A stretch of 64,000 nt of DNA, taken from Spirochaetia bacterium (GTDB lineage: Bacteria; Spirochaetota; Spirochaetia; UBA9216). Shown here in pieces: positions 23,201 to 41,861 of the stretch. Location: positions 3,488,001 through 3,552,000 of the forward strand of contig OY776510.1 of assembly GCA_963675665.1 (NCBI GenBank), given 5' to 3'. Numbering within the stretch: position 1 is the first letter of the stretch; each line of letters opens with the position of its first letter. The position numbers and the translations under genes are program-made. The notes under the pieces are model-generated. The model was not told where the DNA came from. It was given only the letters and a program-made list of their open reading frames with translations, and did not search any database.

Positions 23201-24265
23201 ATGAATATAAAAATAACTTTAAAAAATGATGATTTAATTGAACTCACCTGTCCATATAATACAGAATTAATATCTGTAGTTAAAAAAATACCGGGAAGAA
23301 GGTGGCATCCGGACAGGAAGCTTTGGACATATCCTAATAAAGATAAAAATACCCAATACCTGCTTGAATATTTATATAAAACAGGCTCTTCTTATTACGA
23401 CAAACAGAAAAATCTGCAAAAGAACACTAATATAATTACACCTCTTGAAAAAACTGTAAGATATTTGAGACTGAAAGAATACAGCCCCAAAACAATCTAC
23501 ACCTATAAAAAACATATAAACTGGTTTTTCCGGAGAACCGGTTTGGAGCCGAAGGATGTCCGTACCGAAGATATAATTTTATATCTTGAAAAAATCAAAA
23601 ATGTTGCCGGATGCTCCAGAACTTATGCTGTTCAATGCATAAGCGCTCTGAAATGTTTTTACAGCCGGGGATTTGATTCGTGGTTCAATCCGGCTGACAA
23701 TATTCCGCTGCCTAAGAAAGATCATAAGTTTCCGGATATTCTTTCAAGAAAAGAAATCTCGGATATACTGGAAATAACCGCTAATATTAAACACAAGTTT
23801 TTAATATTATTGATCTATTCCGCCGGCCTGAGGGTAAGCGAAGCTGTCAATTTAAAAATAAACGATCTGGATTTTGACAGAAAAATGATTCATATCAGAT
23901 CAGGAAAAGGTAAAAAAGACAGGTATGTAATGTTATCGGAAAAAGCTGTAAAACTATATTTAGATTACAATAAGCAGGTAATGTTACAAAACTGGCTCTT
24001 CCCAGGTCAGGATTATAACTCTCATTTAAGCATACGATCAGCACAATCAGTATTTATCAGAGCAACTGAAAAAACTGAAATACAAAAAAAAGTCAGCATA
24101 CATTCATTACGTCATGCATTTGCTACACATCTACTTGAAGACGGTGTAGATTTAAGATACATACAGGAGCTTCTGGGGCATAAAAGCAGTAAAACAACAG
24201 AAATATATACCCATGTAACAAAAGTAAGTATAAACCGCCTGAAAAGCCCTATAGACAGATGGTAA
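23201..24265 (+). CDS. Tyrosine recombinase (integron-integrase-like, lacking the I2 insertion)
   Basis: SAGLRVSE (R), GKGKKDR (K), HSLRH, LLGH, TEIYTHV (Y); SAM-like YSPKTIYTY domain; extra N-terminal KKIPGRRWHPDRKLW domain. Confidence 0.93.
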   Translation: MNIKITLKNDDLIELTCPYNTELISVVKKIPGRRWHPDRKLWTYPNKDKNTQYLLEYLYKTGSSYYDKQKNLQKNTNIITPLEKTVRYLRLKEYSPKTIYTYKKHINWFFRRTGLEPKDVRTEDIILYLEKIKNVAGCSRTYAVQCISALKCFYSRGFDSWFNPADNIPLPKKDHKFPDILSRKEISDILEITANIKHKFLILLIYSAGLRVSEAVNLKINDLDFDRKMIHIRSGKGKKDRYVMLSEKAVKLYLDYNKQVMLQNWLFPGQDYNSHLSIRSAQSVFIRATEKTEIQKKVSIHSLRHAFATHLLEDGVDLRYIQELLGHKSSKTTEIYTHVTKVSINRLKSPIDRW

Positions 24266-24786: not shown

Positions 24787-24856
24787 TGCAATTTCTGTCC
24801 TGGTTGGGATTATTTAAGGAAGAGCCCGCCTTCCGTGGCGGGCATGGAGATAAGAA

Positions 24857-27515: not shown

Positions 27516-27658
27516 TAATTAATAAAAAATGTATTGGAATCATGAATTATCTACATGATTAATTTGAAAAGGAGTTAAGCATATAGAAAATGATTATAGG
27601 GTCAAATACATCCATGTATTTGACAATTAAGTATTAAAGCAACCATGAAAGAAACGGC

Positions 27659-27806
27659 ATCTAACAAGCAAATATGTAGCTCCGGCCATTCGGCCTGCGC
27701 CCAAATTGAAGCTAACGGAGAAGCGGAGCAGGACAGTCGGGTTTGCTCATTGACAAAACACTCCTTTGGCGGCGCTTCAACTTTACATATTCGCGGAACG
27801 TTATGT
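27659..27806 (+). repeat. attC-like site 2 (148 bp)
   Basis: ATCTAAC-aa-GCAAATATGTA ... TACATATTCGC-ggaac-GTTATGT. Confidence 0.85.
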
Positions 27807-27955
27807 GCAATTACCCCGCCCCTTTTTTGGGAGAAGAGATTGTATATAGGCAAACTGGCATCCGTGCCAGTTTGGAAATGTATAAACACACATCGCATCG
27901 CATAAAAAGGTGAGATTATAGAATTAAAATTTATTAGTATGCATAACAAGGAAGC

Positions 27956-28837
27956 ATGATAATGGAATGGTCTGAAAGAATGAATATGGCAATCGATTAT
28001 ATTGAAGATAATATTAAAAATGAGATACTGATTTCAGAAGTAGCAAATATAGCCAATTGTTCATCATTTCATTTTCAGCGAATGTTTTATGCAATCATTG
28101 GGATTACGCCTGCTGAATATATCAGACGACGAAGATTGACTTTAGCAGCCTCTGATCTCGCTGCTGGGAATGAAAAAGTCATTGATATTGCTCTGAAATA
28201 TGGTTATGAATCACCAAATGCGTTTACTAGAGCATTCCGGAATATGCATGGTATTAATCCACGAGAAGTGCGCAGCTCAGAGGTTAAATTATCGGCATAT
28301 AATCGTGTTTCTTTTCATATCGAAATCAAAGGAGGAAATGATATGGATTATAAAATAGTCGAAAAACCGTCTTTTGAATTGGTAGGGAAGAGTAAAAACT
28401 TTACACATGAAAACTTTTTTAAAGAAGGCCCTAAATTCTGGAAAGAATACGTATGTACAGATGAATACCAAGAGCTTTGGAATTTGACAAATGGTAGATG
28501 GGGAGAGGTGACTGATTCCCCTCTGATGTCTGTCTATTTGCCTAGTGAAAAAAATGATGAATCATTTATTGATATTCTTGGTGTTGAAAAGTCAGATAGT
28601 TTTAATAATCATAAATTTGAACTATTTCAGATACCAGCTGCTACCTATGCAGAATTTAATTGTACTTATCAGACTTCTGCAAAAATGAATAAATTTATTT
28701 ACGGTGAATGGCTTCCTTCAACCGGTTATGAAAGGGATACTCAAAAAGCTGATATTGCAGCTTATTTCCCAGTAGCTTTTATGTCAACAAAAGGGATGGG
28801 GGTACGATGGTGGATACCAGTGGTTAAGAGAAAGTGA
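27956..28837 (+). CDS. Cassette 3: AraC-family regulator with GyrI-like effector domain
   Basis: MEWSERMN.AIDYIE, SSFHFQRMF, EYIRRRRLTLAA, KYGYESPNAFTRAF. Confidence 0.92.
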   Translation: MIMEWSERMNMAIDYIEDNIKNEILISEVANIANCSSFHFQRMFYAIIGITPAEYIRRRRLTLAASDLAAGNEKVIDIALKYGYESPNAFTRAFRNMHGINPREVRSSEVKLSAYNRVSFHIEIKGGNDMDYKIVEKPSFELVGKSKNFTHENFFKEGPKFWKEYVCTDEYQELWNLTNGRWGEVTDSPLMSVYLPSEKNDESFIDILGVEKSDSFNNHKFELFQIPAATYAEFNCTYQTSAKMNKFIYGEWLPSTGYERDTQKADIAAYFPVAFMSTKGMGVRWWIPVVKRK

Positions 28838-28909
28838 AAGAGATTTCAAGCAAAACATCGTGTTTTGCTTGAAGAATTCTCTTAAGAAAGACCGGGGCGG
28901 GGAAACTGC

Positions 28910-29001
28910 ATCTAACAAGGGTTACACGCTCCGGCCATTCGGCCTGCGGGCTGCGCCACATTCGGCTGCGCCGAACGTCGTGTAACCCTGGAACGTTATA
29001 C
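28910..29001 (+). repeat. attC-like site 3 (92 bp)
   Basis: ATCTAAC-a-AGGGTTACACG ... CGTGTAACCCT-ggaac-GTTATAC; nearly identical to site 4. Confidence 0.9.
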
Positions 29002-29079
29002 AAAATGTTCCCGCTAAGAGGAAGACGCCCGGACCTCCGGCCGACGGGCTAAAAGAGAGTTTAAGATTAAGGAATCAAG

Positions 29080-29859
29080 ATGGAAAAAGAGTTTACCGGA
29101 AATGAAATTGGATTAAATGGAGAAGCTCAAATAAAGATAGCTATCAAAACTATCTCTGATCTTGGTGGGAAAGCAGAAATGAAGGATTTATATTCTGCTT
29201 TAGAGAATGAAATGCGAGGAAAGAAACTCTCCAATCAAGGAAAGGCAAGTTTCAGATTTTTTGTGAATAAGGTCGCTGTAAAAGCAGGATTGATTTATCC
29301 GTATGACAAAAATAATCCGGGGTGGATGTTGACTCCGGCTGGTAAAGAATATCTGAAGAATGAAGAGATTAATGAAATAACAGTAAATACGGATACAAAT
29401 GAAGAAGAGGTAACTTTATCTAATTCGGCAAGAGGTTTAGCTTTTGAATTATACGCTCATGATTTTCTAAAGACATTATATCCAAGTTTTGTGTGGCATC
29501 ATCAGGGGCTTTATAAAACAACTGAAAGAGGTTTGGATTTTATAGGAGATAAACTTGGGGATCAAAATTCAGATGTTCGAACCATTGGTGTTCAGGTTAA
29601 GTTTCATAAAGAGAAAAATTCGCCAACTCAGATTGAATGGTTAAAATTTCTATCTGGTTGTTTTGCGCGCAGAGTAGATTTAGCAATATTTATCACAACA
29701 GGTAGATTGTCGAGTGCTCAATATCGAGAGGCGAGGGAATCAAATGTTATAGTTATTCAAGGAAAGGATGAGATAACAAGGATTGCAAAACAGAATAATT
29801 TAAAGAAGTTTGATTTATTTGGAAGTGAAGAGGAAGGAGAGGCTTCAGAAGAAGGATGA
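29080..29859 (+). CDS. Cassette 4: Mrr-like restriction endonuclease
   Basis: N-terminal winged helix (GWMLTPAGKEYL), then FE, GLD, GVQVK, IFITTG..S Mrr_cat motifs. Confidence 0.82.
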   Translation: MEKEFTGNEIGLNGEAQIKIAIKTISDLGGKAEMKDLYSALENEMRGKKLSNQGKASFRFFVNKVAVKAGLIYPYDKNNPGWMLTPAGKEYLKNEEINEITVNTDTNEEEVTLSNSARGLAFELYAHDFLKTLYPSFVWHHQGLYKTTERGLDFIGDKLGDQNSDVRTIGVQVKFHKEKNSPTQIEWLKFLSGCFARRVDLAIFITTGRLSSAQYREARESNVIVIQGKDEITRIAKQNNLKKFDLFGSEEEGEASEEG

Positions 29860-29921
29860 AGAGTTAAGATGTTCAAGCCTTGACTCCGCCGTGCGGCTTG
29901 AACGAAGAGCGGGAACACTTC

Positions 29922-30013
29922 GTATAACAAGGGTTACACGCTCCGGCAATTCGGCCTGCGGGCTGCGCCACATTCGGTTGCGCCGAACGTCGTGTAACCC
30001 TGGAACGTTAGCT
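29922..30013 (+). repeat. attC-like site 4 (92 bp)
   Basis: GTATAAC ... GTTAGCT; body differs from site 3 at two positions. Confidence 0.9.
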
Positions 30014-30105
30014 GAAATGCCCCGCTAAGAGGAGAACGCCCGGACCTCCGGCCGACGGGCTAAACTGAATAGGAAATTAATAATAAATTAAAATATGGAG
30101 TTAGT

Positions 30106-30954
30106 ATGAAGAAGTTATCACTAGTATTTGTATTTCTAATAGCTGTGAGTAGTTTATATGCAGAGGATATAGCTTTAATTGAAGATAATGTGCTTGATTT
30201 ATTTAATAGTTACAATCCTCAATATAAAACAATTGGTCCAAAAATCTTGAATATCCCTGAAGGGCAAATTGATTTTTACAAAATGAAAATAGATACTGAT
30301 GAAAGTGATCTAAAATTCTTAGTAATTAAAGATAAGTACATTATAGGGGTCTTGCAAAATGTTAATGGTGAAGATCAACTTTTAATTGATGCAAATGGTG
30401 ATAATTTATTAGATTATTATTCTCAAGAATTAACAATACCTTATTGGGTTGTAGCATCAGAGTGTAATAATCACAGTAATAATGAATATAATTTGGATAT
30501 TTATTTTGATGAAGCTATTGAGATTTTTAATGGAGAGGTGAACCCATATTCATCCGGTTTGCATTATCAGTTTACGCAAAAATTATTAGTTTCAGTTTCA
30601 GCACCGGAAACTCCTAATCGAGATATAATTTACGCTTTATATGATTATTACAATCATGGCGACCAATATCCATGGGTTGCTTTACAAATAATTAATTATA
30701 TAAGCAAGACTACTTACGATAGATATAAAAAGGATAATCTATTATTTTACTTACATACTATGGAATCCTTAATTAATTTTGGATATTCAGATAGAGCGAT
30801 ACCATTGATGGAAGAGTTAGTAAAGAAATACCCAGAATTTATTCCAGGGTTAGTGTATAGATGGCAATTAGAAAATGATGCTTCGAAAAAGGAGAAATAT
30901 TATAAAGATCTAAAAACCAATTATCCAAATCATTGGATAGTGAAATTAATTTAA
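30106..30954 (+). CDS. Cassette 5: exported hypothetical protein with TPR-like C-terminus
   Basis: Signal peptide MKKLSLVFVFLIAVSSLYA; GGAG RBS; helical repeats ..KYP.. / ..NYPNHW. Confidence 0.75.
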   Translation: MKKLSLVFVFLIAVSSLYAEDIALIEDNVLDLFNSYNPQYKTIGPKILNIPEGQIDFYKMKIDTDESDLKFLVIKDKYIIGVLQNVNGEDQLLIDANGDNLLDYYSQELTIPYWVVASECNNHSNNEYNLDIYFDEAIEIFNGEVNPYSSGLHYQFTQKLLVSVSAPETPNRDIIYALYDYYNHGDQYPWVALQIINYISKTTYDRYKKDNLLFYLHTMESLINFGYSDRAIPLMEELVKKYPEFIPGLVYRWQLENDASKKEKYYKDLKTNYPNHWIVKLI

Positions 30955-31034
30955 TGAAATATTATAGATTTGAAAACTTTGGTAGCCAGTCCTTGACTCC
31001 GTCGCACGGACTGGTTTAAGAGCGGGGACACTTC

Positions 31035-31342
31035 AGCTAACAAGGGAATATAAGCAGCGCCCATTCGGGCTTGGCCTTCGGCACATTTTTATTTTTCTGA
31101 ACATAGGCTTTATCATCGGCATTTAACACATGAAATGCAGTAGTCAACACCTTTGACACGGTTCTGGCGGAGACATTCGCTGATCGCTCATTCCAGAACC
31201 GCGCCAACCCTCGAAGACTCGGGACGGTTTCGCTACTGATTTCGTCGTTAAATGCACGGGATTTTTCAGTTTCGGGAAAATGATGGGTGTGATAGAATCA
31301 ATGAGAAAAATAAAAACGTCTTATATTCCCGGGGCGTTATGC
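31035..31342 (+). repeat. attC-like site 5, giant (308 bp), with nested inner site at 31121-31253
   Basis: AGCTAAC-aa-GGGAATATAAG ... CTTATATTCCC-ggggc-GTTATGC; TTTTTATTTTTCT/AGAAAAATAAAAA arm; inner ATTTAAC...GTTAAAT. Confidence 0.8.
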
Positions 31343-31576
31343 GACATTCTTGGAGGAAGAAGATAGAAACATTGTTTGGGATGATTTTGATAGTTTTTAG
31401 CATTTTACTCATTAAAAATTATTTTATTTCATATGGAAGGGCTATAAATAAATTCCGTGATATAATGTTATTTACAGTTTTAAATGCTGTAATTGAATTC
31501 TCAAGCAAGATCAACCAACTTGTTTTTAGGAACTTTACGCAGAAATTTAAGATTGAATTAAAAATAAAGGACGAAC

Positions 31577-32212
31577 ATGAATTCTACAGGCCAATATTAC
31601 TACAATGCCAGATGGTATGACCTAAATCTGGGTAGGTTTACCACAGAAGACCCGATAAGCGACGGCCTAAACTGGTACGCTTACGCTAATAATAATCCGC
31701 TGAGGTTTGTTGATCCGACCGGGTTAATAGATGTTGAATCTGATATAGTTGAAACGGAAACATACGTCGATGTTGATACTGATTCTCTCATGACTGGTGA
31801 TCCTATGGATATCTTTGATGATCCAGAAGTTGCAAAAGCTGATACTTTAGCTCAATTAGAAGATGTAGTAGATGAAACTGTAGAAATGATTTCCTTTACT
31901 ACCACTTTGGGTGGACTTTTGCCAGATGAAGAAGTTTCAACCACATTATTTTTTATTGGTGTAGGGACCGACCTTTATTCTACCCTTGTCTCTGAGGATA
32001 TGTCAGGGCTTGAATTAGGGATAAAGATAGGACTTGGTGTTGTTGGACTTATTTCAAGTCCTGCTGTTGCAGTGCCCTGTGTTTTAGCTACGATGTATGT
32101 AGGCTCGGCTTTTGATCATTTAGATGATGGACCTATTACAACAACTGATAATATGTCTGATTTATCTGATTTTCTTGGTGGTACTATAGATTGGGCAATG
32201 GATAATCAATAA
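31577..32212 (+). CDS. Cassette 6: Rhs-associated core plus C-terminal toxin-like domain
   Basis: TGQYYYNARWYD..LGRFTTEDP...NWYAYANNNPLRFVDPTGL. Confidence 0.88.
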   Translation: MNSTGQYYYNARWYDLNLGRFTTEDPISDGLNWYAYANNNPLRFVDPTGLIDVESDIVETETYVDVDTDSLMTGDPMDIFDDPEVAKADTLAQLEDVVDETVEMISFTTTLGGLLPDEEVSTTLFFIGVGTDLYSTLVSEDMSGLELGIKIGLGVVGLISSPAVAVPCVLATMYVGSAFDHLDDGPITTTDNMSDLSDFLGGTIDWAMDNQ

Positions 32213-32514
32213 TGAAAATACTTTTTACAATCTATTTTTGGATTTATTATACCGGTTTAAATATCAATAAAACCTTAGGAATACCAAAAAGACTATCAAG
32301 CTCTTATACTGGTGCAGGTCTTCTTACAGGATTATCTGTATTCATACCTATTTTTGTTTTGTTGGATTATTTCTTACCAATTAAATTAAGTAAATTACCT
32401 ATTTATTTTTGCATACTAATAATTATTATTATATTCGAAAAGATTTTAAAAAAGGTAAGTATAAATAAAAGTGGTGTCGAAGTAAAAGAAAAGATTGAAG
32501 ATTTAATAAATTAG
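32212..32514 (+). CDS. Cassette 6: small membrane protein, putative immunity protein
   Basis: TAATG overlap with the Rhs gene; hydrophobic segments. Confidence 0.55.
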   Translation: MKILFTIYFWIYYTGLNINKTLGIPKRLSSSYTGAGLLTGLSVFIPIFVLLDYFLPIKLSKLPIYFCILIIIIIFEKILKKVSINKSGVEVKEKIEDLIN

Positions 32515-32760
32515 ATCGTTTTTTAGTGTTTATAGATTTTATTTCTTTCATAATTATTTTTTCATGGATATTTCTAAGTTTTTATTTATGGCATTTTATA
32601 ATAATAAATTCTATTTGAAAACAAAATAGATTACCTTCCGCCGGAATAGGGCGTTGGAGTAGTCCCGGTGAAACCGGGCTACTCAACTATCCATTCCGGC
32701 TTCCAAGATAAATAGGGTGGAATTAAAGGTTGTATGATAAAATGTTAATAAAAGAACGTC

Positions 32761-32901
32761 GCATAACAACGGTTAAGCGGCTCCGGCCAGTCGGCCTGCG
32801 CCCAAATTGCCAGGAAGGGATTAGATAAACTTGAGGCAGTTAATAAGTAAGAGTTTATGTTCAGCTTTCCTGTCAACTTCGCTTAACCCGGAACGTTATC
32901 T
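32761..32901 (+). repeat. attC-like site 6 (141 bp)
   Basis: GCATAAC-aac-GGTTAAGCG ... CGCTTAACC-cggaac-GTTATCT. Confidence 0.85.
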
Positions 32902-32967
32902 GAAAGTTTTGGTTTTTGGTGATTCTATATAGAATAGTCATTCATGGCTATTCTTGTAAGATTTATC

Positions 32968-32996
32968 TTGACTAAGGTTAGCATGTAGGCTAACAT
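32968..32996 (+). promoter_or_regulatory. TA promoter with overlapping palindromic operator
   Basis: TTGACT-17bp-TAACAT; GTTAGC-N6-GCTAAC palindrome. Confidence 0.7.
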
Positions 32997-33002
32997 GAGA
33001 GT

Positions 33003-33365
33003 ATGAGTCGAAAAGTGATTTTCTATACAACAGATACAGGAAAATGCCTTGTAGAAGAATTTCTCAATAATCTTGAGGTAAAAGTTGTTAAGAAGATTGT
33101 TTGGACGTTGAAAATAATTGAGGAGATGGATTTAGTTCCAAAGACATATTTCAAGAAGTTGTAATCTACTGATGGAATATGGGAGGTCAGAATTAAAGTT
33201 GGAACAAATATATACCGGATCTTTAGTTTTTGGGATAAGAATAATTTGATTGTTTTAACCCATGGGATGATTAAGAAGTCTCAGAAAACACCAAAAAATG
33301 AGATCAAAATAGCAGAAAGTTATAAGAAGGAATATTTCAGGAGGAAAGAAAATGAACCTCAATGA
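33003..33365 (+). pseudogene. Cassette 7: RelE/HigB (Gp49-like) toxin with premature stop
   Basis: MSRKVIFY...YFKKL*STDGIWEVRI..YRIF..LTHGMIKKSQKTP; in-frame TAA at 33162. Confidence 0.88.
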
Positions 33366-33624
33366 TTATGTAGATAAAAGAATAAAGAATGAAGGAATCT
33401 CAAAAGAAGAGTTTTGGGATGGCTATGAAGATTATAAGATAGGGATATTCTTAAAAGAGGCAAGAGAAAAAAGTGGGTTAACGCAGGAAGAGTTAGCAAA
33501 TCGAATCAATACAACTAAAAGTGTAATCTCAAGGATGGAGAATCATTCTGAAGATATAAAATTATCAACTATTGAAAAAGTAGCAAAAGCCTTAGGAAAG
33601 AAGGTTAAAATCGCAATCGTTTGA
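33352..33624 (+). CDS. Cassette 7: HigA-like XRE antitoxin
   Basis: REKSGLTQEELA...KSVISRMEN...LSTIEKVAKALG. Confidence 0.9.
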   Translation: MNLNDYVDKRIKNEGISKEEFWDGYEDYKIGIFLKEAREKSGLTQEELANRINTTKSVISRMENHSEDIKLSTIEKVAKALGKKVKIAIV

Positions 33625-33684
33625 TTCTACACTAAAGCCCAAAAGACATCCTTGTCTTTTGGGGATCAAATCACCAAAACCTTC

Positions 33685-33779
33685 AGATAACAGGGGCTAT
33701 GTGCTTCGTCGCTATACGCTCCTCGGGCTACGCCACATACGGCTATCGCCGTACGTCACATAACCCCGGGACGTTAGAT
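33685..33779 (+). repeat. attC-like site 7 (95 bp)
   Basis: AGATAAC-a-GGGGCTATGTG ... CACATAACCCC-gggac-GTTAGAT. Confidence 0.9.
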
Positions 33780-33912
33780 GCAATGAGCCCGACAAGAGGA
33801 AGACGCCCGGACCTCCGGCCGACGGGCTAAGAGGTAAATATATGGAATATGAAAAATTATTTTTTGATAAATTAAGTCAAAGCTACAATAATTCTTCCTA
33901 TTAGGAGAGCGA

Positions 33913-34632
33913 ATGTGGTATGAGAAGACCTATATAAATGGTTCTATGAAGTGGATTAAAATATTTAATGATGAAAATCAAGGACTCAAAGTTGAGGATT
34001 GGGAATTAGATCGCGCCTGGGAGGCTGTAATAAAAGAAGATCCTGATTATATAACAATTGAATTGATGTATGATCAAGAATTTGCTTTCAGTTCTGCATT
34101 TTTCTTTCGTGCAAATATAAAGAATCCAAAACTTCAAACATTTTTTTGTCCAAAGTGTTTTAAATATTTAGATACTCATGAAGAAATGTTTTTTTTCAAT
34201 AATCCAATATTAAGGACAAATAAAATAATAAAATCAAAATTTGAAAATGTTAATTTTAAAAATAAGGCATCTGCCGAAATTCAAGCTTATATACTCAATG
34301 AAAATACTTTTAAAAATTGTGGATTATGGGGTATGCACGGTTGTACTTTGTTGTCTTATTTTATTGAAGAAGAGCATTATGATGTGATTTTTCAAAGTAA
34401 TAATGAAGGATTTGTATATCTATGGAAATATAAAGGAATTCCACAAAGATTTAAATTAGAATTAAATGAAAAGGAAAGCAGATTTGATGTAATAGATAAA
34501 AATGAGATTGTTTACTCTGAAAGCCTTGAACGTTTTTTCACAGCTAAAGGGTTTTATAATAGATATTATGAGATAGTAAGCTATTTAAATAATTTTAAAA
34601 AATTAAATTTAGAGGATAAGAACGATATATAA
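33913..34632 (+). CDS. Cassette 8: hypothetical protein (true start may be 33842, frameshifted)
   Basis: 239-aa ORF between two sites; an out-of-frame ATG with GAGGT RBS lies at 33842. Confidence 0.65.
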   Translation: MWYEKTYINGSMKWIKIFNDENQGLKVEDWELDRAWEAVIKEDPDYITIELMYDQEFAFSSAFFFRANIKNPKLQTFFCPKCFKYLDTHEEMFFFNNPILRTNKIIKSKFENVNFKNKASAEIQAYILNENTFKNCGLWGMHGCTLLSYFIEEEHYDVIFQSNNEGFVYLWKYKGIPQRFKLELNEKESRFDVIDKNEIVYSESLERFFTAKGFYNRYYEIVSYLNNFKKLNLEDKNDI

Positions 34633-34715
34633 GAACCGAAGTTTTGGTATTTTTTAAGATCAATGAAGAATCCAGACCTAACTCCGTTGAACGGTCTGGA
34701 TGTTGGGCTCAAAGC

Positions 34716-35016
34716 ACATAACAAGGGAATATAAGCAGCGCCCGTACGGGCTTGGCCTTCGGCACATTTTTATTTTTCTGAAGTGAGTGAAGATTATCGG
34801 AATTTAACAAGTCAAATGCAGTTGTCGCCGTCTATTGTCACGGTTTTAGCAGAGACGTTTCGCGCTGATCGCGCTACACTCTAAAACCGCGCCAATTCCT
34901 TTCGCTTCGCTCCAGGATCGAGGGCGCAACTGATTTAGTCGTTAAATGCACGGGATTTTTCAGTTTCGGGAAAATGATGGGTGTGATAGAATCAATGAGA
35001 AAAATAAAAACGTCTT
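34716..35016 (+). repeat. attC-like site 8 (giant type), truncated by IS3
   Basis: Homologous to 31035-31342; ends at AAAAACGTCTT where the IS begins; inner site at 34802-34947. Confidence 0.82.
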
Positions 35017-35046
35017 TGAACCGCCCCGGGAATCCCGGAGACTGTT

Positions 35047-35955
35047 TTAGTTGAGTCCGACAACTCTGGCCGAATCTCTAACACTTTCATAATACATCAT
35101 CTCAAACTCTTTTGGGGGAATATTTCCAATCGGTTCAAGAATTCTTCGGTTGTTAAACCAGTCCACCCATTTCAGAGTTTCATATTCTACTTCATCTATA
35201 GATTTCCAGGGACCTTTTCTCCAGATCACCTCCGCTTTATATAAACCGTTTATTGTTTCCGCCATTGCATTATCATATGAATCTCCAACACTTCCGACAG
35301 AAGGTTCAATGCCTTCTTCAGCCAATCTCTCAGAATATTTGATAGACAGGTACTGGCTGCCGCGGTCGCTGTGATGAATCAATTTATCTTCCGGCGCTCG
35401 AGCAAAGATTGCCTGCTCCAAAGCATCCAGAGTTAGTTCGGCACTCATTGATCGCGATACGCGCCAACCGACGATCATCCGTGAAAACACATCTGTTACA
35501 AAGGCTACATATACAAATCCTCGCCAGGTTGCCACGTAGGTGAAATCTGCAATCCATAACTCGTTCGGCCGGGTAGATTTGAATTCCCGATTTACTAAAT
35601 CCAACGGCCTGTCTGTTTTCTTATCAGGAATCGTCGTTTTAATACCCTTGCCGCGAATAACTCCTCTAAGACCAAGATCCTTCATGAGTCGAGCTACAGT
35701 GCATCTTGCGACATTAAAACCCTCACGCTTCAGTTGTCTCCAGACTTTTCGGACTCCGTAAACTTTGTAGTTATCATCCCAGACACGCTTAACTTCCGAC
35801 TTCAATTTTTTATCAGAGTGATAGCGTGCAGGAGCCTTACTTGGATCTTTTTCTCTGGATTTCATTTCGTAATAAAAAGACGGAGCAATCGGTATTACTT
35901 TACAGATTGACTCGACTCCATAATCTTCTCTATTTTTATCAATGAAATTAATCAT
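35047..35955 (-). CDS. IS3 OrfB transposase (DDE)
   Basis: [37 protein letters not shown]. Confidence 0.95.
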
Positions 35956-36275
35956 TTCCTCTGTGGGCGGTCGAGCTCCGCCTGTGCGAAATATGCTGAA
36001 GCCTTTCTGAGTATCTCGTTAGCTTTTCTTAATTCCCTGACTTCTCGCTCCAGTTCTTTAATTCTGGTTTTCTCATCAATAGTCAGACCTTCTCGCTTTT
36101 CTGAATCCATTTCCGCTTGACGAACCCATCGGCGCAATGTTTCCGGGGTGCAGCCAATCTTGTTTGCTATTGATTCTATGGCTCCCCATTGGGAGCCGTG
36201 CTATTCAGTAGTCTCAAATACCAACCGTACTGAACGTTCTTTTACTTCTTTTGAATACCGGGTTCTTTTGTCCAT
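35952..36275 (-). pseudogene. IS3 OrfA with premature TAG
   Basis: [48 protein letters not shown]; stop at 36201-36203. Confidence 0.85.
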
Positions 36276-36325
36276 AACATAATCCTCTCATATAATTATG
36301 TCTCTGGTAAACCCGGGGCGGTTCA

Positions 36326-36654
36326 ACCATCAGAACAGGAATATGATGGAGATTTTGTAGAGTTTGCGTATCCGATAAATTACAGGAAGCGGTTCGTAAA
36401 TAATCGAGGCTTTATCAGTTTTAATGGAACACGCTATTTTGTCGGGAATCCATTTGGAGGATACAATATAGGAGTTCAGCAGAATGAAGAAGGGCAACTA
36501 AATGTCTGGTTTGGAGACTCTCTTCTTGGATATTTTAACCAGGAAAGTTTGTTGCTGGTGCCTGAAAAGCAGTATACACTAATGAAAAGAAAAAGGAGAA
36601 AAGTGTTACCGATGTCGTGACACAAATCCGTTACCTATGTCGTGAAACCGGACC
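36326..36654 (+). mobile_element. IS481-family remnant (3' end of transposase and right end)
   Basis: Frame ending ..NVWFG...RKVLPMS* followed by tandem GTTACC.ATGTCGTGA repeats typical of IS481 ends. Confidence 0.7.
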
Positions 36655-36693
36655 CCGCTGTCGCCTTCCATGGCTCATTAGAAAGAATTAAGA

Positions 36694-36722
36694 TTGATAA
36701 AACTTAAAAGGTGTTGTACAAT
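36694..36722 (+). promoter_or_regulatory. TA promoter
   Basis: TTGATA-17bp-TACAAT overlapping TGTACA/TGTACG motifs; ATG 7 nt downstream. Confidence 0.6.
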
Positions 36723-36728
36723 GTACGT

Positions 36729-37121
36729 ATGAGTATATTGGTAGATGCAAACATATATTTAGCAGTAATTCTCGATGAGCCGGAAAAAAGCAAAATAATA
36801 GAATTAACTCAGGAAGATGATCTGATATCACCGGTTGTTTTACCTTTCGAAGTGGGAAACGCACTATCTGCAATGTATAAAAGAAATAGGTTAGATAAAA
36901 GTCAAATAATTGATTGTTATTCAATATTTCAGAAAATACCAGTGCGTTTGATTGATGTTAATATTCAAAACTCATTAGTAATAGCAGCAGATTATGGAAT
37001 ATATGCTTACGATGCATATTATTTGGAGATAGCAAAACGATACAAATGCAGTTTGTTGAGTTTGGATAATAGAATGAAAGAAGTGGCTAAAGATTTAGGA
37101 GTCCACTTATTGGAGGTCTGA
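36729..37121 (+). CDS. Cassette 9: VapC PIN-domain toxin
   Basis: ILVDANI, FEVGNAL, YAYDAYYL, LLSLD. Confidence 0.92.
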   Translation: MSILVDANIYLAVILDEPEKSKIIELTQEDDLISPVVLPFEVGNALSAMYKRNRLDKSQIIDCYSIFQKIPVRLIDVNIQNSLVIAADYGIYAYDAYYLEIAKRYKCSLLSLDNRMKEVAKDLGVHLLEV

Positions 37122-37346
37122 ATGAGAGTTTTTAATTATTCAGAAGCTAGGCAGAATTTTGCTTCAATATTGAATATGGCAGCAGAAGAAGATGTCATAA
37201 TAGCAAAGAAAGATGGAAGCAGATTTAAGATTGTACCGCTTACTAAAAATGAAAGTAAATCCCCATTTGACGTTCCAGGAATTAAAAGTAAAGTTACAAC
37301 CAAAGAAATCCTTGATGTTATTAGAGAAACTCGAGAGTTATCGTAG
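37122..37346 (+). CDS. Cassette 9: Phd/YefM-like antitoxin
   Basis: YSEARQNFASIL...VII.KKDG. Confidence 0.88.
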   Translation: MRVFNYSEARQNFASILNMAAEEDVIIAKKDGSRFKIVPLTKNESKSPFDVPGIKSKVTTKEILDVIRETRELS

Positions 37347-37367
37347 AGAAGAAAGCCGTAATACTTC

Positions 37368-37462
37368 AGATAACAGGGGCTATGTGCTTCGTCGCTATGC
37401 GCTCCTCGGGCTGCGCCACATACGGCATTCGCCGTACGTCGTATATCCGCGGAACGTTAGAC
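37368..37462 (+). repeat. attC-like site 9 (95 bp, arms mismatched)
   Basis: AGATAAC-a-GGGGCTATGTG ... CGTATATCCGC-ggaac-GTTAGAC; body like site 7. Confidence 0.82.
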
Positions 37463-37496
37463 GAAAGATATAAAGGTCGACGGGCTTGAATGAGAT

Positions 37497-38306
37497 ATGA
37501 ATATTGAAAAGGTTTTAAGGAATTATATAAAAATAGAGAATAGAGTTATCCATTCGGGTGAACAGTTTGTTATAATTACATTATGTTTAATACTGGTATT
37601 TTCATGTAACAAAAAGATAGAAAGCAGAAATAATGAATTATTAAAAGTATTGTTTATAGGAAATAGCTACACATTCAATAATAACCTTCCCGATCAAGTT
37701 AAAAAAAATATTTACTGATCAAAACAAGGCTATTTCTATTGAGATAAAATCATTTACTCCCGGTGGAGCAAGACTCCAAGATCATCTAAATTCTATTTTC
37801 ACTTTGGATACAATAAGAAATGGAAATTGGGATATAATAATTATACAAGGGCATAGCTTGGGCCTCTAAATAATCCTATTGGTTTTAAGGATGCTGCTTT
37901 AACTCTCATAAAAATCGCTAAAGATAGTGGTGCTGAAGTCTATTTATTTGAAACATGGTCTCGTGCTTTGGGTGAACCAGAGTACAGTGAAGAATGGTCA
38001 GGGCGAAATCATGCTGCAATGCAGAAACTCATCAGCAAAAAATATACTGATATTGCAATAGTCACTGATGCAATAGTTATTCCGATAGGGAGAATATGGC
38101 AAAGACTAAGGATAGAGATCCCAAAAATTGAATTATATTCAACAGACGGTTCTCATCCTACACCCTGTGGAAGTTATTTGGCGGCTTGTGTTATTTATAA
38201 ATATCTGTTCGATGAAGATCCTACTGACATTAAATACTATCCAAATGGAATAAAGAAATCTGATGCTAAGAAATTACGGGCTGCTGCTGAAAATATTATT
38301 CTTTAA
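37497..38306 (+). pseudogene. Cassette 10: SGNH-hydrolase-like protein, frameshifted
   Basis: VLFIGNSYT, WDIIIIQ, LFETWSR and DGSHPT..GSYLAA spread over different frames. Confidence 0.8.
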
Positions 38307-38559
38307 CGAAAAAGAAATAAGTTTGGAGAATATTATGACCGAGATACTATATACGATTAATATTTAATTTCCTTAGAGATGGAAAAAACTTATTGTCCAG
38401 GCATGTGAAAAAAATATGAAGATGAAAATGATTCATTGTAGCTGGTTGAAGAGTGATGGTTTTAAGCAGATAGTCAGTTATAAAAAGGGGTGCTATAATA
38501 ATCAAAGAAACCAGACCTTGACATCGCCGTGCGGTCTGTTTGAAGAGCCAAAACTCTTG

Positions 38560-38636
38560 CTATAACAGGGGCTATGTGCTCAGCCCATTCGGCCTTCGGG
38601 CTGCGCCGAACGTCGTGTAACCCTGGAACGATAGGA
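38560..38636 (+). repeat. attC-like site 10 (chimeric; right core has lost TT)
   Basis: Left arm of site-7 type, right arm of site-3 type; ends GGAACG-ATAGGAA instead of GTTATAGGAA. Confidence 0.78.
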
Positions 38637-38660
38637 ACTAGTTTTTAAGAGATTATTACG

Positions 38661-39155
38661 ATGAAAGAGAAGTACCAAATCCAAATAGCCGATAAGAATG
38701 ACCAAGAATTTCTTTATGAGATGCTTTACCAATCAATTTATGTAGAGCCAGATTCACCGAAACCTGATAGACAAATAATTGATATTCCAGAAATATCAAA
38801 ATATGTCGCAAACTGGGGAAAGCAAGGAGATTACGCTTTAATTGCTTTAGATGAAAATGGAACTAAAATAGGTGCAGTTTGGCTCCGATACTTTGATGTA
38901 AATAACAAGGGATATGGATTCATTAACGATCAGATACCTGAGATAGGTATCGCTGTAGAAGAAAAGAGCCGTGGGAATGGTATTGGGTCATTCTTATTAA
39001 ATGAAATATTGAAAAGAACGAAAAATGAAATAGAATCAATTTCATTAAGTGTTCAACCGAATAATCCAGCAATGGATTTATATTCTCGATTCGGTTTCTA
39101 TGAATGTGGAAAAGAAGGGGACTCTGTAATAATGAGATATGATAACGAGGCATGA
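38661..39155 (+). CDS. Cassette 11: GNAT acetyltransferase
   Basis: GAVWLR, GYGF..PEIGIAV, RGNGIG, SLSVQPNNPAMDLY.RFGF. Confidence 0.92.
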   Translation: MKEKYQIQIADKNDQEFLYEMLYQSIYVEPDSPKPDRQIIDIPEISKYVANWGKQGDYALIALDENGTKIGAVWLRYFDVNNKGYGFINDQIPEIGIAVEEKSRGNGIGSFLLNEILKRTKNEIESISLSVQPNNPAMDLYSRFGFYECGKEGDSVIMRYDNEA

Positions 39156-39165
39156 AAACTACTTC

Positions 39166-39281
39166 CTATAACAGTGAGTATATGCTACGTTCGGCTATCG
39201 CGCCTCACTTGGGCTGCGCCACATTTTTTCTTTTTCCTGCTCCGCTTCGCCCGCTTATCGGGAAAAGAAAAAACGTTATAT
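39166..39281 (+). repeat. attC-like site 11 (right inner arm deleted)
   Basis: CTATAAC ... GGGCTGCGCCACA TTTTTTCTTTT/AAAAGAAAAAA c GTTATAT; no partner for the left arm. Confidence 0.72.
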
Positions 39282-39302
39282 GCAATGCATAACGAGAAAG
39301 AA

Positions 39303-39800
39303 ATGATTGTATTAGAAAAATTTGAAAAAGATAACATTCCCCAATTACTATCTTGGCTTGAAGACACGGATGCAAAATTCCTTTTACAGTTTGCTGGACC
39401 CATATATTTATTCCCATTGAATGAAAAACAACTCATGGAAACTTTGGATTCAAAAGATTATTTATTGCTTCGGGCAATCGATACCAAAGCCGGGAATATA
39501 ATCGGTCATTGCCAATTTATGAGAGTTGATAAAAATAAACAACAAGCATCCATTGGTAGAATCCTTATTAATCCTAATTTCAGAGGGAAAGGATTTGGAG
39601 TACAACTCATAAATGAAATGAAAATCTTTGCCAAAGATAAATTAAATCTATTGAAGATTGATTTACGTGTTTTTGATTTCAACACTGCAGCTTTACATTG
39701 TTATTCTAAAGCTGGGTTTGTTAAAACCTCTGTACATGAAAACCATATTCCTGAGTTCAATGAAACTTGGAAAATTATTACAATGGAATGTTCTCTCTGA
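39303..39800 (+). CDS. Cassette 12: GNAT (RimJ-like) acetyltransferase
   Basis: RILINPNFRGKGFG, LRVFDFNTAALHCY.KAGF; real start MIVLEKF. Confidence 0.9.
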   Translation: MIVLEKFEKDNIPQLLSWLEDTDAKFLLQFAGPIYLFPLNEKQLMETLDSKDYLLLRAIDTKAGNIIGHCQFMRVDKNKQQASIGRILINPNFRGKGFGVQLINEMKIFAKDKLNLLKIDLRVFDFNTAALHCYSKAGFVKTSVHENHIPEFNETWKIITMECSL

Positions 39801-39824
39801 CCCTCTATTCTCGTTGGTCAATGA

Positions 39825-39971
39825 ATCTAACAAGCGAATATGCGGTTCCGATTCGCTCCACTCAAATTGCTTCTTTGATAATCTCTGATAAAAGTATGCT
39901 ATACTTTTCCCAGATATTATTAAGCTCTCAAGTGGCCGAAGCACCTTCGCATATTCCGCAGAACGTTATAT
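39825..39971 (+). repeat. attC-like site 12 (147 bp)
   Basis: ATCTAAC-aa-GCGAATATGCG ... CGCATATTCCGC-agaac-GTTATAT. Confidence 0.85.
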
Positions 39972-40080
39972 GACATATTCTTGAGATGGATATAATATAC
40001 AGAAAATAAAAGAGGAGTACTTAATGTCTACAATATTATTTGATTTCTTTAGATAAACATAAAAATATAAGGAGTCAATA

Positions 40081-40827
40081 TTGTCGTATTTTAATTTTCA
40101 AGGAAAGAAAATATTTTATTCAGTTAAAGGAGAAGGTCCTCTTCTGATAGTTTTACCAGGTAACACAGCTACATCTGCTGCACATGAGCATGAGTTAAAT
40201 TATTTTTCAGATAAGTATTGCACTGTTTCCCTAGATTTTCTGGGAACTGGAAAATCAGACAGAATGAAGCAATGGGATAGCGGTTGGTGGGAAGCCTGTA
40301 GTAACCAAGTTAAAGCATTAGTTGAGCATCTTAATTATAAAGAGGCGATTCTTCTTGGCATAAGTGGCGGTGCTATTATAGCAATTTCTGCCGCTATAAA
40401 TCATTCTGAATATGTTAAAGCAGTTGTTGCAGATAGCTTTTCATTGCATTTTACGGAAGAAATGTATAAAAACAATGTCTTAAATGAAAGATCTAATTTA
40501 TCTGAAGAACAACAAATGTTCTGGTCATCAATGCATGGTTCAGATTGGAAAGATGTTATAACTGCTGATACAGAAATGATTGGAATGGTTGTTAAGGAAG
40601 GAGGATCTTGTATCAAGAGCCAACCAGAAAAGATAAAATGTCCTGTTTTGCTGACATATTCAGAAGAAGATAGTTTTCTTCCAAATGTAAAAGAAATTGC
40701 TGCAGATTTAGAAAAGAAGATTAGCAATTGTGAGATTAAAATATTTTCAAATGGAGATCATCCTCTAATTTGGACAAATCCTACGGATTTTTTTCAATCC
40801 GTTGATAGATTTCTATTAAAAATATAA
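40081..40827 (+). CDS. Cassette 13: alpha/beta hydrolase
   Basis: LDFLGTGKS, GISGG nucleophile elbow, ED, GDH. Confidence 0.9.
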   Translation: MSYFNFQGKKIFYSVKGEGPLLIVLPGNTATSAAHEHELNYFSDKYCTVSLDFLGTGKSDRMKQWDSGWWEACSNQVKALVEHLNYKEAILLGISGGAIIAISAAINHSEYVKAVVADSFSLHFTEEMYKNNVLNERSNLSEEQQMFWSSMHGSDWKDVITADTEMIGMVVKEGGSCIKSQPEKIKCPVLLTYSEEDSFLPNVKEIAADLEKKISNCEIKIFSNGDHPLIWTNPTDFFQSVDRFLLKI

Positions 40828-40879
40828 AGAAAATTTGTGGGCTATTTCGATGGCCCGCATTCAATAACAAGAATAAGTC

Positions 40880-41051
40880 ACATAACAGCGTGGATCAAGG
40901 GCCTTGCCGTCCCTGGCAAGGATAAAGAAAAGTCGACAAAACGCACACATTGTAATAATTTACTATTATGAAGCTTTTTGATTGGGATGAAAAGAAGAAT
41001 TCAGAATTAAGAAAAACGCGTGATATAAACGGAAGATTGGTTGAATCAAGC
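40880..41051 (+). pseudogene. Truncated site 13 fused to a remnant BrnT-like toxin cassette
   Basis: ACATAAC at 40880 without right half; ATG 40968 gives MKLFDWDEKKNSELRKTRDI, then deleted. Confidence 0.62.
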
Positions 41052-41145
41052 AGATAACAGGGGCTATTTGCATCGTCGCTATGCGCTCCTCGGGCTGTGC
41101 CACATACGGTTGCGCCGTACGTCACATAACCTCGGAACGTTATGC
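41052..41145 (+). repeat. attC-like site 14 (94 bp)
   Basis: AGATAAC-a-GGGGCTATTTG ... CACATAACCTC-ggaac-GTTATGC; site-7 family. Confidence 0.87.
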
Positions 41146-41197
41146 GAAATCTCGAACCTAAAAAAAGAAGATGCTTGCCATCCTTTGCAAGCAAAGA

Positions 41198-41230: not shown

Positions 41231-41246
41231 TTAGTTGAGGTATAAT

Positions 41247-41495: not shown

Positions 41496-41812
41496 TCCAT
41501 CAATACGAAGTGTATTTGATAAACTTGGATCCGACTGTTGGTCATGAAATAAAAAAGACAAGACCTTGTTTAGTTATTTCACCAAACGAGATGAATGAAT
41601 CGATCCAGACTATTATAATCGCTCCAATGACAACGAAATCACATCCATATCCAACTCGAGTACCAATTAAATTTGAAAAGAAAGATGGATGGATTGTTTT
41701 AGATCAATTAAGAACAATTGATAGAAAGAGATTAATTAAAAAAATTGGAAAGATAAATAAAAAAGAAGTTGAACTCGTCAAGAATGTACTCCAGGAAATG
41801 TTAATAGATTAA
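41483..41812 (+). CDS. mazF: Cassette 15: PemK/MazF toxin
   Basis: LDPTVGHEIKKTRPCLVISP, APMTT, LDQLRTIDRKRL. Confidence 0.94.
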   Translation: MGMVIHQYEVYLINLDPTVGHEIKKTRPCLVISPNEMNESIQTIIIAPMTTKSHPYPTRVPIKFEKKDGWIVLDQLRTIDRKRLIKKIGKINKKEVELVKNVLQEMLID

Positions 41813-41861
41813 AGCCAATCAACATCCTTGTTGCTTGGCTTTGAAGAAGGTTTGTGACTAC

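Follow-up and report, generated by a model that had tools for sequence, protein, structure and literature searches.

The leader and trailer that frame the gene cassettes described here each form half of a single long, folded DNA module around the cassette recombination site and are not separate elements. On balance, we read the frame as one extended folded single-strand DNA module centered on the cassette attC. As in ordinary integrons, a cassette consists of an ORF and one module, but here the module is larger, running in the order trailer hairpin, purine linker, ≈20-nt arm, R''-attC-R', ≈20-nt arm, purine linker, leader hairpin. This widespread design seems to be undescribed so far; in the parts of the literature that our search reached, we found no publication on attC flanks of this kind, with long arms and accessory hairpins.

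The window, by which we mean the whole 64,000-nt stretch of DNA analyzed, contains an integron-like array, and all coordinates from an earlier sequence-only reading were reproduced (Table 1). In cassettes 4, 5, and 8, unrelated ORFs lie between the same 23-nt leader hairpin and trailer hairpins that covary. The leader 23-mer, GCCCGGACCTCCGGCCGACGGGC, occurs exactly at 29027, 30038, and 33805 (three matches in the window versus 0.00 expected from 100 shuffles); the remnant reported in cassette 10 is TCGACGGGC at 37477-37485, and the quoted trailer stem sequences were all found. That unrelated ORFs share one structured frame also holds among 163 framed cassettes, whose longest ORFs fall into 126 families. 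Within this set, the ORFs from cassettes 4, 5, and 8 have no other match.

Table 1. Features of the array in window coordinates.
Feature	Position	Strand	Details
Array-head tyrosine recombinase	23201..24265	+	354 aa, co-oriented with cassettes
Cassette 2 leader hairpin, alternative class	24824..24843	+	GCCCGCC ttccgt GGCGGGC
Cassette 2 trailer hairpin, alternative class	27601..27624	+	10-bp stem, loop TCCA
Cassette 3 leader hairpin, alternative class	27851..27874	+	10-bp stem, loop TCCG
Cassette 3 trailer hairpin, alternative class	28845..28873	+	13-bp stem, loop TCG
attC of cassette 3	28914..28997	+	
Cassette 4 leader arm (ext')	28995..29015	+	GTT of R' plus 18 nt; partner 29908-29928
Cassette 4 leader hairpin, canonical 23-mer	29027..29049	+	purine linker AAGAGGAAGAC just before
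Cassette 4 ORF	29080..29859	+	259 aa, Mrr_cat restriction endonuclease domain
Cassette 4 trailer hairpin	29871..29903	+	9-bp outer stem, inner GAC-TCC-GCC mini-hairpin
Cassette 4 trailer arm (ext'')	29908..29928	+	terminates in AAC of R''
attC (type A), cassette 4/5 border	29926..30009	+	
Cassette 5 leader	30007..30060	+	arm 30007-30027, linker, leader hairpin 30038-30060
Cassette 5 ORF	30106..30954	+	282 aa, no family match
Cassette 5 trailer	30986..31041	+	hairpin 30986-31014, arm to AAC at 31039-31041
Type-A attC	31039..31338	+	complete type-B attC (31118-31262) nested between its halves
Cassette 7 trailer hairpin, alternative class	33638..33663	+	11-bp stem, loop TCCT
Cassette 8 leader	33773..33827	+	arm 33773-33793, leader hairpin 33805-33827
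Cassette 8 ORF	33913..34632	+	239 aa, no family match
Cassette 8 trailer	34670..34722	+	hairpin 34670-34701 (inner AAC-TCC-GTT), arm to AAC
Leader hairpin remnant, decayed cassette 10	37477..37485	+	TCGACGGGC
Cassette 10 trailer hairpin	38512..38538	+	loop variant GACATCGCC
Trailer hairpin ahead of attC 41868-41945	41811..41842	+	two-tier, inner TCC loop

Pairing between leader and trailer arms

Approximately 20 nt after the GTT of a cassette pair with approximately 20 nt before its own AAC, not with those of its neighbor. In cassette 4, 16 of 18 arm positions form Watson–Crick pairs and the other two are A.C, giving 18 of 18 paired on the bottom strand. For cassettes 3 to 8 of the window, own arms pair at 12 to 16 of 18 positions versus 4 to 10 with neighbors. 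In a Spirochaetia MAG (G401), 128 of 149 cassettes have a gapped arm score of at least 12, a level attained by 51 of 154 arm pairs that span one attC and by 617 of 5000 pairs drawn at random; without gaps, at least 14 of 18 positions are paired in 56 of 149 own arms, in 13 of the 154 attC-spanning pairs, and in 119 of the 5000 random ones. The discordant G401 spans (21 of 149) are mostly 2 to 5 kb in length and possibly comprise two cassettes. Arm positions 3 to 8 and 12 to 19 show two to four Watson–Crick pair types each, and 54 of 58 well-paired arms have A.C at position 10. The arms of framed cassettes in the type-B array of the genome under study pair over only ≈9 bp.

Since a cassette's leader is complementary to its own trailer over ≈20 nt, the two would form a single extended attC module in the circular cassette. 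The bottom-strand folding energy of the circular junction is −55.2 kcal/mol for cassette 4 and −92.0 kcal/mol for cassette 5, versus −44.7 and −67.7 kcal/mol, respectively, for the array junctions, and the bottom strand folds better than the top in every junction case computed.

Hairpin covariation and the pairing strand

The trailer stems had been said to covary, and an alignment of 62 distinct trailer hairpins from several genomes upholds this: 83.1% of cells pair versus 74.1% after shuffling, and the covariation score of 0.258 (0.119 shuffled) was reached by none of 500 shuffles, in tests that are inflated by kinship among the sequences. When the 3' partner is slid by one to three columns, only 12 to 54% of cells pair. 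The inner mini-stem also covaries (pair 18-26: GC 44, CG 5, AU 4, A.C 9; pair 20-24: UA 9, CG 2); nearest-neighbor folding does not predict this 3-bp inner hairpin. Its loop motif is not universal, with many G401 trailers carrying GTT, GGT, ATT, or TGT instead of TCC, and alternative hairpins with unrelated stems occupy the same positions as the canonical ones. Conservation lies in structure and the stems covary, which agrees with the proposal that the frame is recognized by structure; the covariation persists in larger alignments, and the enclosed ORFs are non-homologous.

The leader 23-mer is near-invariant, with 14 variants in 258 contexts, and structure alone does not explain this. The leader hairpin alone folds no better than its shuffles (z −1.46 for the minus and +0.23 for the plus strand), and its 5-bp outer stem hardly varies and therefore offers no covariation evidence of its own.

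Read on the coding strand, nearly every non-Watson–Crick pair is A.C; on the bottom strand, the one used by integron recombination, the same pair is G.T. This bias is seen at four independent places, and top-strand G.T is rare. The earlier observation that G-U pairs are valid on the minus strand only holds and extends to leader pair 7-15 (A.C 225, G-C 31, A-T 2 in 258 distinct contexts), to the leader flank pair −2/+2 (T-A 152, G-C 28, C.A about 54-55, top-strand G.T 1), and to arm position 10. Wobbles that favor the top strand are few: the flank pair is TG in two cases, and one Bacillota leader has T.G in the outer stem. The better-pairing strand of the module is the bottom strand.

On the coding strand the non-standard pairs would be mismatches, and only the opposite strand lets them wobble. 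Found at four places, this argues against the frame being a set of expression signals on coding-strand RNA, an explanation that we regard as improbable. Under that explanation the leader hairpin would serve as a 5' stabilizer or a translational control element (because its CCUCC/UCC loops resemble an anti-Shine–Dalgarno sequence and lie between AAGAGG-like purine runs), the trailer as a 3' stabilizer or terminator, and the arms as a processing stem that frees the mRNA of each cassette from a polycistronic transcript. The hairpins do lie on both sides of the ORF, next to purine-rich Shine–Dalgarno-like runs; type-B cassettes have a −10-like GGGTGTAAAAT 15 to 20 nt upstream of the leader hairpin; the longest ORF is co-oriented with the frame in 149 of the 163 framed cassettes; and a near-invariant leader fits a sequence-specific reader. 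However, frame orientation tracks attC, not the gene, as reversed MatE (two), PIN (two), and other ORFs lie in unturned frames. The canonical hairpins are also not terminator-like, the distance from hairpin to start codon ranges from 30 to 85 nt, promoter-like and terminator-like sites are not enriched (37 found versus 41.5 expected and 8 versus 7.5, respectively), and Rfam gave no match for the frame.

Distribution of the frame and its contents

Within the 5.15-Mb genome, 15 leader copies and 17 trailer-hairpin CM matches all lie in three arrays, in cassette orientation, and no copies of either were found outside arrays. Leader copies number 158 in G401, 13 in G402, and 17 in G403, with none for a control pattern. 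Frame copies also occur in one Bacteroidales MAG and in Bacillota genomes, and metagenomes hold at least 135 distinct leader contexts on more than 100 contigs and with many attC classes.

The sequence-only reading had proposed a reusable chassis, which is partly supported, the same frame being found around unrelated ORFs; the frame is neither two independent elements nor a fixed socket. As an explanation in which the hairpins mark joints where foreign ORFs enter a pre-existing trailer hairpin–attC–leader hairpin module and the frame is a footprint of cassette making, we likewise consider the proposal doubtful. It fits the unrelated ORFs inside identical modules, the same inner motif in direct orientation in both hairpins, and metagenome contigs that match a window leader and trailer with other letters between. 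It also fits the module lineage shared by the leader and trailer of one cassette, with arm types and leader position-17 variants traveling together. But an empty chassis, a module without an ORF, is absent among 188 distinct leader contexts; the mapped frame–ORF junctions lie at no fixed distance (30 to 85 nt past the leader hairpin, 11 to 37 nt ahead of the trailer hairpin); no candidate enzyme for such insertion was identified; and the same pattern is expected if the ordinary cassette-making process copies any extended attC module onto new genes.

It is very unlikely that the hairpins act as antisense-strand RNA resembling the binding sites of CsrA-type regulators. Their bottom-strand loops read TGGA, CGGA, AGGA, AGGAC, or GGA, the wobbles favor that strand, and an ACA-NGGA-TGT-type hairpin with a GGA loop resembles a CsrA-type site, but the G401 loop variants lack GGA, arm complementarity is left unexplained, and the frame also occurs in the MAG from Bacteroidales, most of which are not known to have CsrA. 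That one cassette was simply duplicated, or that the frame is a dispersed repeat like REP or MITE elements, has a negligible probability and was ruled out by the 126 families among 163 ORFs and the lack of any copy outside arrays in 5.15 Mb, and the fixed position of the frame relative to GTT and AAC also counts against it, even though two framed cassettes of the type-B array are duplicates (457-aa ORFs at 4,482,540 and 4,497,568).

The array-head recombinase and known systems

Judged from its sequence, the recombinase at the array head is not a canonical IntI. It has an Xer-like core without IntI insertions, to which an N-terminal HARP-like domain of ≈65 aa is added (Pfam, NCBIfam). Against TIGR02249 it scores 190.8 bits, under the cut-off of 265, with model positions 170-234 unmatched, and ≈41 residues of IntI insertions are missing from it when aligned with the true IntI of this genome. 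The N-terminal domain matches Pfam HARP at 27.5 bits (cut-off 25); its best fold matches are weak (UvsW N terminus, Z 5.7; XPB, Z 5.0; SMARCAL1 HARP, Z 4.3, 27% identity) and are to branched-DNA-binding domains, at scores below the level where chance arrangements are common. Full-length orthologs head the framed arrays of G401 and G402 in the same orientation, and orthologs also occur in G403, G404, and G405. Ten framed cassettes of this genome belong to its array of type-B attC sites, the one with a canonical IntI, so the link between the frame and the Xer-like recombinase is not exclusive.

If the frame is an extended folded attC module, a G|TT crossover would split it, and in the array its 3' part would be the leader of the same cassette. 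The two arms would be adjacent only in the excised circle, where the attC stem would be ≈20 bp longer; since the arms pair within their own cassette, the trailer hairpin, arm, attC, arm, and leader hairpin would be contiguous there. We infer that, in the excised single-stranded circle, the module may stabilize the folded attC and present it for integration. The hairpins on either side, with bottom-strand loops that are mostly GGA, could be structural insulators or accessory ("arm-type") sites, and the array-head recombinase may read them through its extra HARP-like domain at the N terminus.

Known integrons carry gene cassettes with attC sites (59-be), among them sedentary chromosomal integrons with homogeneous attC sites, such as the VCRs of Vibrio, and "reverse" integrons in Treponema, Chlorobium, and Blastopirellula (PMC3607928 and PMC6557892). 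Integrons share with the present system co-oriented arrays of unrelated genes, AAC/GTT-bounded imperfect palindromes, bottom-strand preference, and a recombinase gene beside the array, which here has the same orientation as in reverse integrons. Crossover in integrons occurs at G|TT, as it would here, so that the opening bases of each cassette pair with the 3' end of that same cassette. Unlike in the integrons described there, pairing here runs ≈20 bp past the R boxes and two accessory hairpins flank the site; the recombinase also differs, lacking the IntI-specific insertions and carrying an N-terminal domain absent from the IntI of this genome.

The CTX phage genome integrates at dif, and its attP(+) forked hairpin is used by XerCD. 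CTX differs in having no cassette array, AAC/GTT attC architecture, or flanking accessory hairpins, and by analogy the two may be alike in the action of an Xer-type recombinase on a folded, single-stranded hairpin, exchanging one strand. Tyrosine recombinases of the lambda-Int (heterobivalent) type combine an extra N-terminal DNA-binding domain with arm-type sites. The array-head recombinase likewise has an extra N-terminal domain, and its core crossover site has conserved extra sites to either side, but the presumed arm sites would be hairpins in folded single strands rather than duplex repeats, and the N-terminal fold is predicted, from a weak match, to be HARP-, UvsW-, or XPB-like and not of the lambda-Int kind.

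An array of framed cassettes

The window carries a cassette array on its plus strand that runs from ~24.3 kb to at least 42 kb, with a tyrosine recombinase gene at its head in the same orientation as the cassettes. By script and by eye, we identified 14 attC-like palindromes with AAC and GTT at their ends (24693-41945), in which 8-10 of 10 L-box positions pair. The boxes that characterize integron attC sites, R″ (..AAC), L″, L′ and R′ (GTT..), are present at the 3′ ends of the cassettes, and the genes between the sites are co-oriented and unrelated, as in an integron array. They include AraC/Cass2, Mrr_cat, an RHS tip with an immunity gene, toxin-antitoxin pairs and GNATs. Numbering by these attC sites recovers cassettes 4, 5, 8 and 10 of the sequence-only reading.

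Features of the cassette array (window positions)
Feature	Position	Strand
Tyrosine recombinase gene	23201-24265	+
attC 1	24693-24782	+
Cassette 2, defence-type genes	24857-27515	
attC 2	27663-27802	+
Alternative hairpin, predicted terminator	28844-28874	
attC 3	28914-28997	+
Cassette 4, Mrr_cat nuclease	29080-29859	
attC 4	29926-30009	+
attC 5	31039-31338	+
Nested type-B attC	31118-31262	
RHS tip and small ORF	31577-32514	
attC 6	32765-32897	+
Alternative hairpin, predicted terminator	33638-33663	
attC 7	33689-33775	+
attC 8	34720-	+
Nested type-B attC	34806-34943	
IS3-family element	35018-36337	
ALIL pseudoknot	35881-35997	-
attC 9	37372-37458	+
Cassette 10	37459-38631	
DUF4886 gene pieces	37497-37718, 37968-38306	
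attC 10	38564-38631	+
attC 11	39165-39278	+
attC 12	39829-39967	+
attC 13	41056-	+
attC 14	41868-41945	+
IS66-family element	42109-44341	-

Two cassettes carry defence-type cargo: cassette 2 encodes a GmrSD-like DUF262/HNH protein and an unknown 354-aa protein, and cassette 4 a nuclease. In another, an RHS protein is represented by its C-terminal tip alone (the RHS-associated core motif and a variable end), and the one small ORF downstream of it resembles its immunity gene. Cassette 10 is decayed, with its gene in two pieces, most of its leader hairpin lost and an R′ box (38629-38631) that reads GAT, not GTT. The attC of cassette 11 (39165-39300) ends in GTTATATGCAATGCATAAC, itself a small palindrome made of an R′-like and an R″-like box. 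The array is broken by the IS66-family element, which comprises a transposase, a TnpB-like Orf2 and a small ORF. The IS3-family element, which has two ORFs and an ALIL frameshift pseudoknot (Rfam RF01497, 106 bits), interrupts the nested attC of cassette 8; the attC does not resume on its far side, so the insertion was probably followed by a deletion or rearrangement.

Many cassettes share a frame, comprising a hairpin in the leader (the 5′ part, from GTT), a hairpin in the trailer (the 3′ part, ending in AAC) and an arm of ~20 nt at either end. Taking the longest ORF from each of 163 framed cassettes (149 from the Spirochaetia MAG G401 and 14 from the source genome), we obtained 126 families at E≤1e-5. 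Those from cassettes 4, 5 and 8 have no match among the others, in keeping with the earlier description of unrelated genes in a common frame. A search for frame copies with other ORFs or with none had been suggested; the 126 families supply the former, and no ORF-less copy occurs among 188 contexts. Fourteen ORFs are reversed (IS transposases, two recombinases, two MatE, two PIN and two unknowns), and around these the frame keeps the orientation of the attC. A 385-aa DDE transposase lies inside cassettes of both G401 and the source genome.

Covarying leader and trailer hairpins

Every position that the sequence-only reading had assigned to a leader or trailer hairpin proved correct, and its claim that the trailer stems covary was borne out for outer and inner stem alike across 62 distinct trailer hairpins. 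The outer stem of the trailer hairpin is 6-9 bp long; beyond a TT/GTRC internal loop, an inner stem of 3-4 bp carries a triloop whose sequence is not universal (GTT, GGT, ATT and TGT also occur in G401 trailers). The same inner element recurs in the leader hairpin, a 23-mer that is almost constant (14 variants in 258 contexts) and is flanked by two further pairs that covary. The linkers between hairpins and arms are purine-only (AAGAG/AAGAAG). Many cassettes, cassettes 2, 3, 7 and 14 of the window among them, have a different hairpin at the same positions, whose stems are free and whose loops include TCCA, TCCG, TCCT and GTCCT. Single-sequence folding finds the trailer outer stems (z = -2.3 to -3.3) and misses the inner mini-hairpin as well as the leader hairpin.

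The hairpins could instead act in RNA, which we consider less likely. In CsrA/RsmA sites, a short RNA hairpin displays GGA in its loop, and the frame hairpins would resemble them only when the bottom strand is read. Two alternative hairpins appear among the predicted intrinsic terminators of the window; the canonical leader and trailer hairpins do not, and terminators are not enriched there (8 sites versus 7.5 expected), nor did a promoter scan of the window show enrichment. At the Rfam gathering score, the sole match is the ALIL element, and at E≤10 positions 28800-31400 yield four chance-level matches, none on the hairpins.

The window has three matches to the leader 23-mer (0.00 expected) and, at up to three mismatches, the 5.15-Mb genome has 15 (14 exact; reversed control, 0). 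All 15 copies lie in cassette orientation inside three arrays, namely that of the window and those at 3.906-3.923 and 4.418-4.524 Mb. A covariance model built from the 62 trailer hairpins finds 17 genomic sites at E≤1 when 150 of 1088 first-look candidates are scored, all of them within the three arrays (window 4, second 3, third 10). Dispersed repeats of the REP/BIME or MITE kind are ruled against by this confinement of 15/15 leaders and, among the candidates scored, 17/17 trailer matches to cassette arrays.

The third array (G000:C1:4,417,887-4,526,315) is a canonical integron, in which an IntI gene (4,525,383-4,526,315, plus strand; 392 bits) faces more than 50 minus-strand attC sites of another class (type B; those of the window are type A), with a ~29-kb gap at 4.448-4.477 Mb. 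A ~95-nt leader with the hairpin is found there only in cassettes beginning GTTAAATGCAC, and ten framed cassettes carry hybrid leaders. Complete type-B sites are also nested between type-A attC halves, twice in the window and at ~4,438,730-4,440,541 of the genome; the ~75 nt after them are conserved and include a -10-like TGATAGAAT. This nesting suggests cross-talk between the two cassette systems.

Beyond the source genome, the leader pattern occurs 158 times in G401, 13 times in G402, another Spirochaetia MAG, and 17 times in the Bacteroidales MAG G403. In G401, a single array of ~320 kb (1.85-2.17 Mb) holds ~156 framed cassettes, as well as two reversed tyrosine recombinase genes (L281:3695-4378 and L291:12716-13597, in numbered stretches of the array) and several type-B-like attC remnants. 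Metagenomes contribute at least 135 distinct leader contexts behind very different attC sites, ~9 of those listed being judged chance matches. The trailer hairpin followed by an attC also occurs, among the matches listed, in Bacillota genomes including an Alkaliphilus isolate. Most of the at least 128 stretches from a trailer-loop scan of genome contigs have stems of ≤3 pairs, come from G+C-rich genomes and were judged by eye to match by chance or within coding sequence. The frame was absent from 400 sampled genomes of the phylum, none of the same family; the one match, with three mismatches, lies in G+C-rich non-integron DNA and was taken for chance.

Arms that pair within cassettes, with bottom-strand wobbles

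The ~20 nt from the GTT of a cassette are complementary to the ~20 nt that end at its own AAC. In window cassettes 3-8, the arms of one cassette pair at 12-16 of 18 positions, versus 4-10 positions across one attC, between the trailer of one cassette and the leader of the next. A gapped pairing score of at least 12 is reached by 128 of 149 G401 cassettes, compared with 51 of 154 neighbours and 617 of 5000 random pairs. The 21 discordant spans, mostly 2-5 kb long, may hold two cassettes each. The arms fall into discrete covarying types, with two to four kinds of Watson-Crick pair at each of positions 3-8 and 12-19.

Non-Watson-Crick pairs are A·C on the coding strand, and hence G·T on the bottom strand, at four independent places, which upholds the earlier claim that the wobbles are valid on that strand. 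Arm position 10 is A·C in 54 of 58 cases in G401 and in window cassettes 3-7; leader pair 7-15 is A·C in 225 contexts, G-C in 31 and A-T in 2; the leader flank pair -2/+2 is T-A in 152, C·A in 54 and G-C in 28, with top-strand G·T once; and the trailer inner pair is A·C nine times and never G·T. Counter-examples exist and are few. Folding energies of the bottom strand are likewise 3-10 kcal/mol more favorable than those of the top. Wobble pattern and folding energies together favor the bottom strand as the folded form, one that the recombinase may recognize.

Because complementarity begins at GTT/AAC and holds within cassettes rather than across neighbors, crossover would fall inside R′, between G and TT. 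This would place the 3′ arm and leader hairpin at the cassette front, so that the excised circle would form one contiguous unit, in the predicted order trailer hairpin, linker, arm, attC, arm, linker, leader hairpin. On the bottom strand, the circular junction of cassette 4 folds into an unbroken stem at -55.2 kcal/mol, while its array junction reaches -44.7; the corresponding values for cassette 5 are -92.0 and -67.7 kcal/mol. We infer that the excised circle is where the module acts, as folded single-stranded DNA, and that the hairpins would be accessory sites there, perhaps for the N-terminal domain of the recombinase. Contigs of four DNA runs aligned to window 24000-42000 gave mostly repeat-induced joints and no clean excision.

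The array-head recombinase and comparison with known systems

The array-head gene could encode an IntI-type integrase with the IntI-specific additional domain. The protein does match TIGR02249, at 190.8 bits (cut-off 265) and in two stretches that leave model positions 170-234 unmatched; aligned with the true IntI of the same genome, it is missing three insertions of 15, 16 and 10 residues, and we reject this assignment. Its nearest structures are archaeal XerA. The N-terminal domain, conserved in the family, matches Pfam HARP (27.5 bits), is modeled with pLDDT >85 over residues 1-60 and gives weak fold matches (Z 5.7 or lower) to the UvsW N terminus, XPB and SMARCAL1 HARP.

Full-length orthologues stand at the head of framed arrays in G401 and G402, in the same orientation, and full-length homologues occur in the fragmented MAGs G403, G404 and G405. 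At E≤1e-40, no homologue was found in G406 or G407, and G408 gave a shorter match only. The family is large (7802 matches at E≤1e-30 among 8000 candidates scored), with generic annotation only. Because the type-B array of the true IntI also has ten framed cassettes, the link between frame and Xer-like recombinase is not exclusive.

We tentatively propose, as a possibility we would not yet call probable, a distinct and widespread integron-like class. Its integrase would be Xer-like, lacking the IntI domain and bearing an N-terminal branched-DNA-binding (HARP-like) domain. Its cassette site would be a three-part folded DNA, a long split stem complete only in the excised circle plus two accessory hairpins serving that domain as arm-type sites. 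The hairpins could also mark joints where new genes attach to a pre-made module, in which case cassette genesis becomes testable.

The literature searched holds no description of flanking hairpins or extended arms around attC, nor the frame motif strings; passages of PMC3607928 and PMC6557892 mention neither feature. The structured site of a large cassette-array family, found in genomes of Spirochaetia, Bacteroidales and Bacillota and across many metagenomes, is much bigger than the attC hairpin, and the recombinase adjoining the array would not be classed as IntI by standard integron finders. A Treponema integron was reportedly the subject of work by Coleman in 2004, and to our knowledge surveys have found few or no integrons in Bacillota. 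If the proposal is true, the definition of integrons broadens, with Bacillota included. The full stem, existing only in the excised circle, would then give a structural reason for the difference between excised and arrayed cassettes, and the way new genes become attached could be studied in a module that is defined and conserved, which would bear on the question of cassette origin.

In integron biology, the attC hairpin is regarded as the whole recombination signal and the additional domain of IntI as the mark of the integrase. Heterobivalent tyrosine recombinases combine an arm-binding domain at the N terminus with matching arm-type sites on both sides of the core; the window recombinase has an extra N-terminal domain, for which the frame hairpins may be arm sites.
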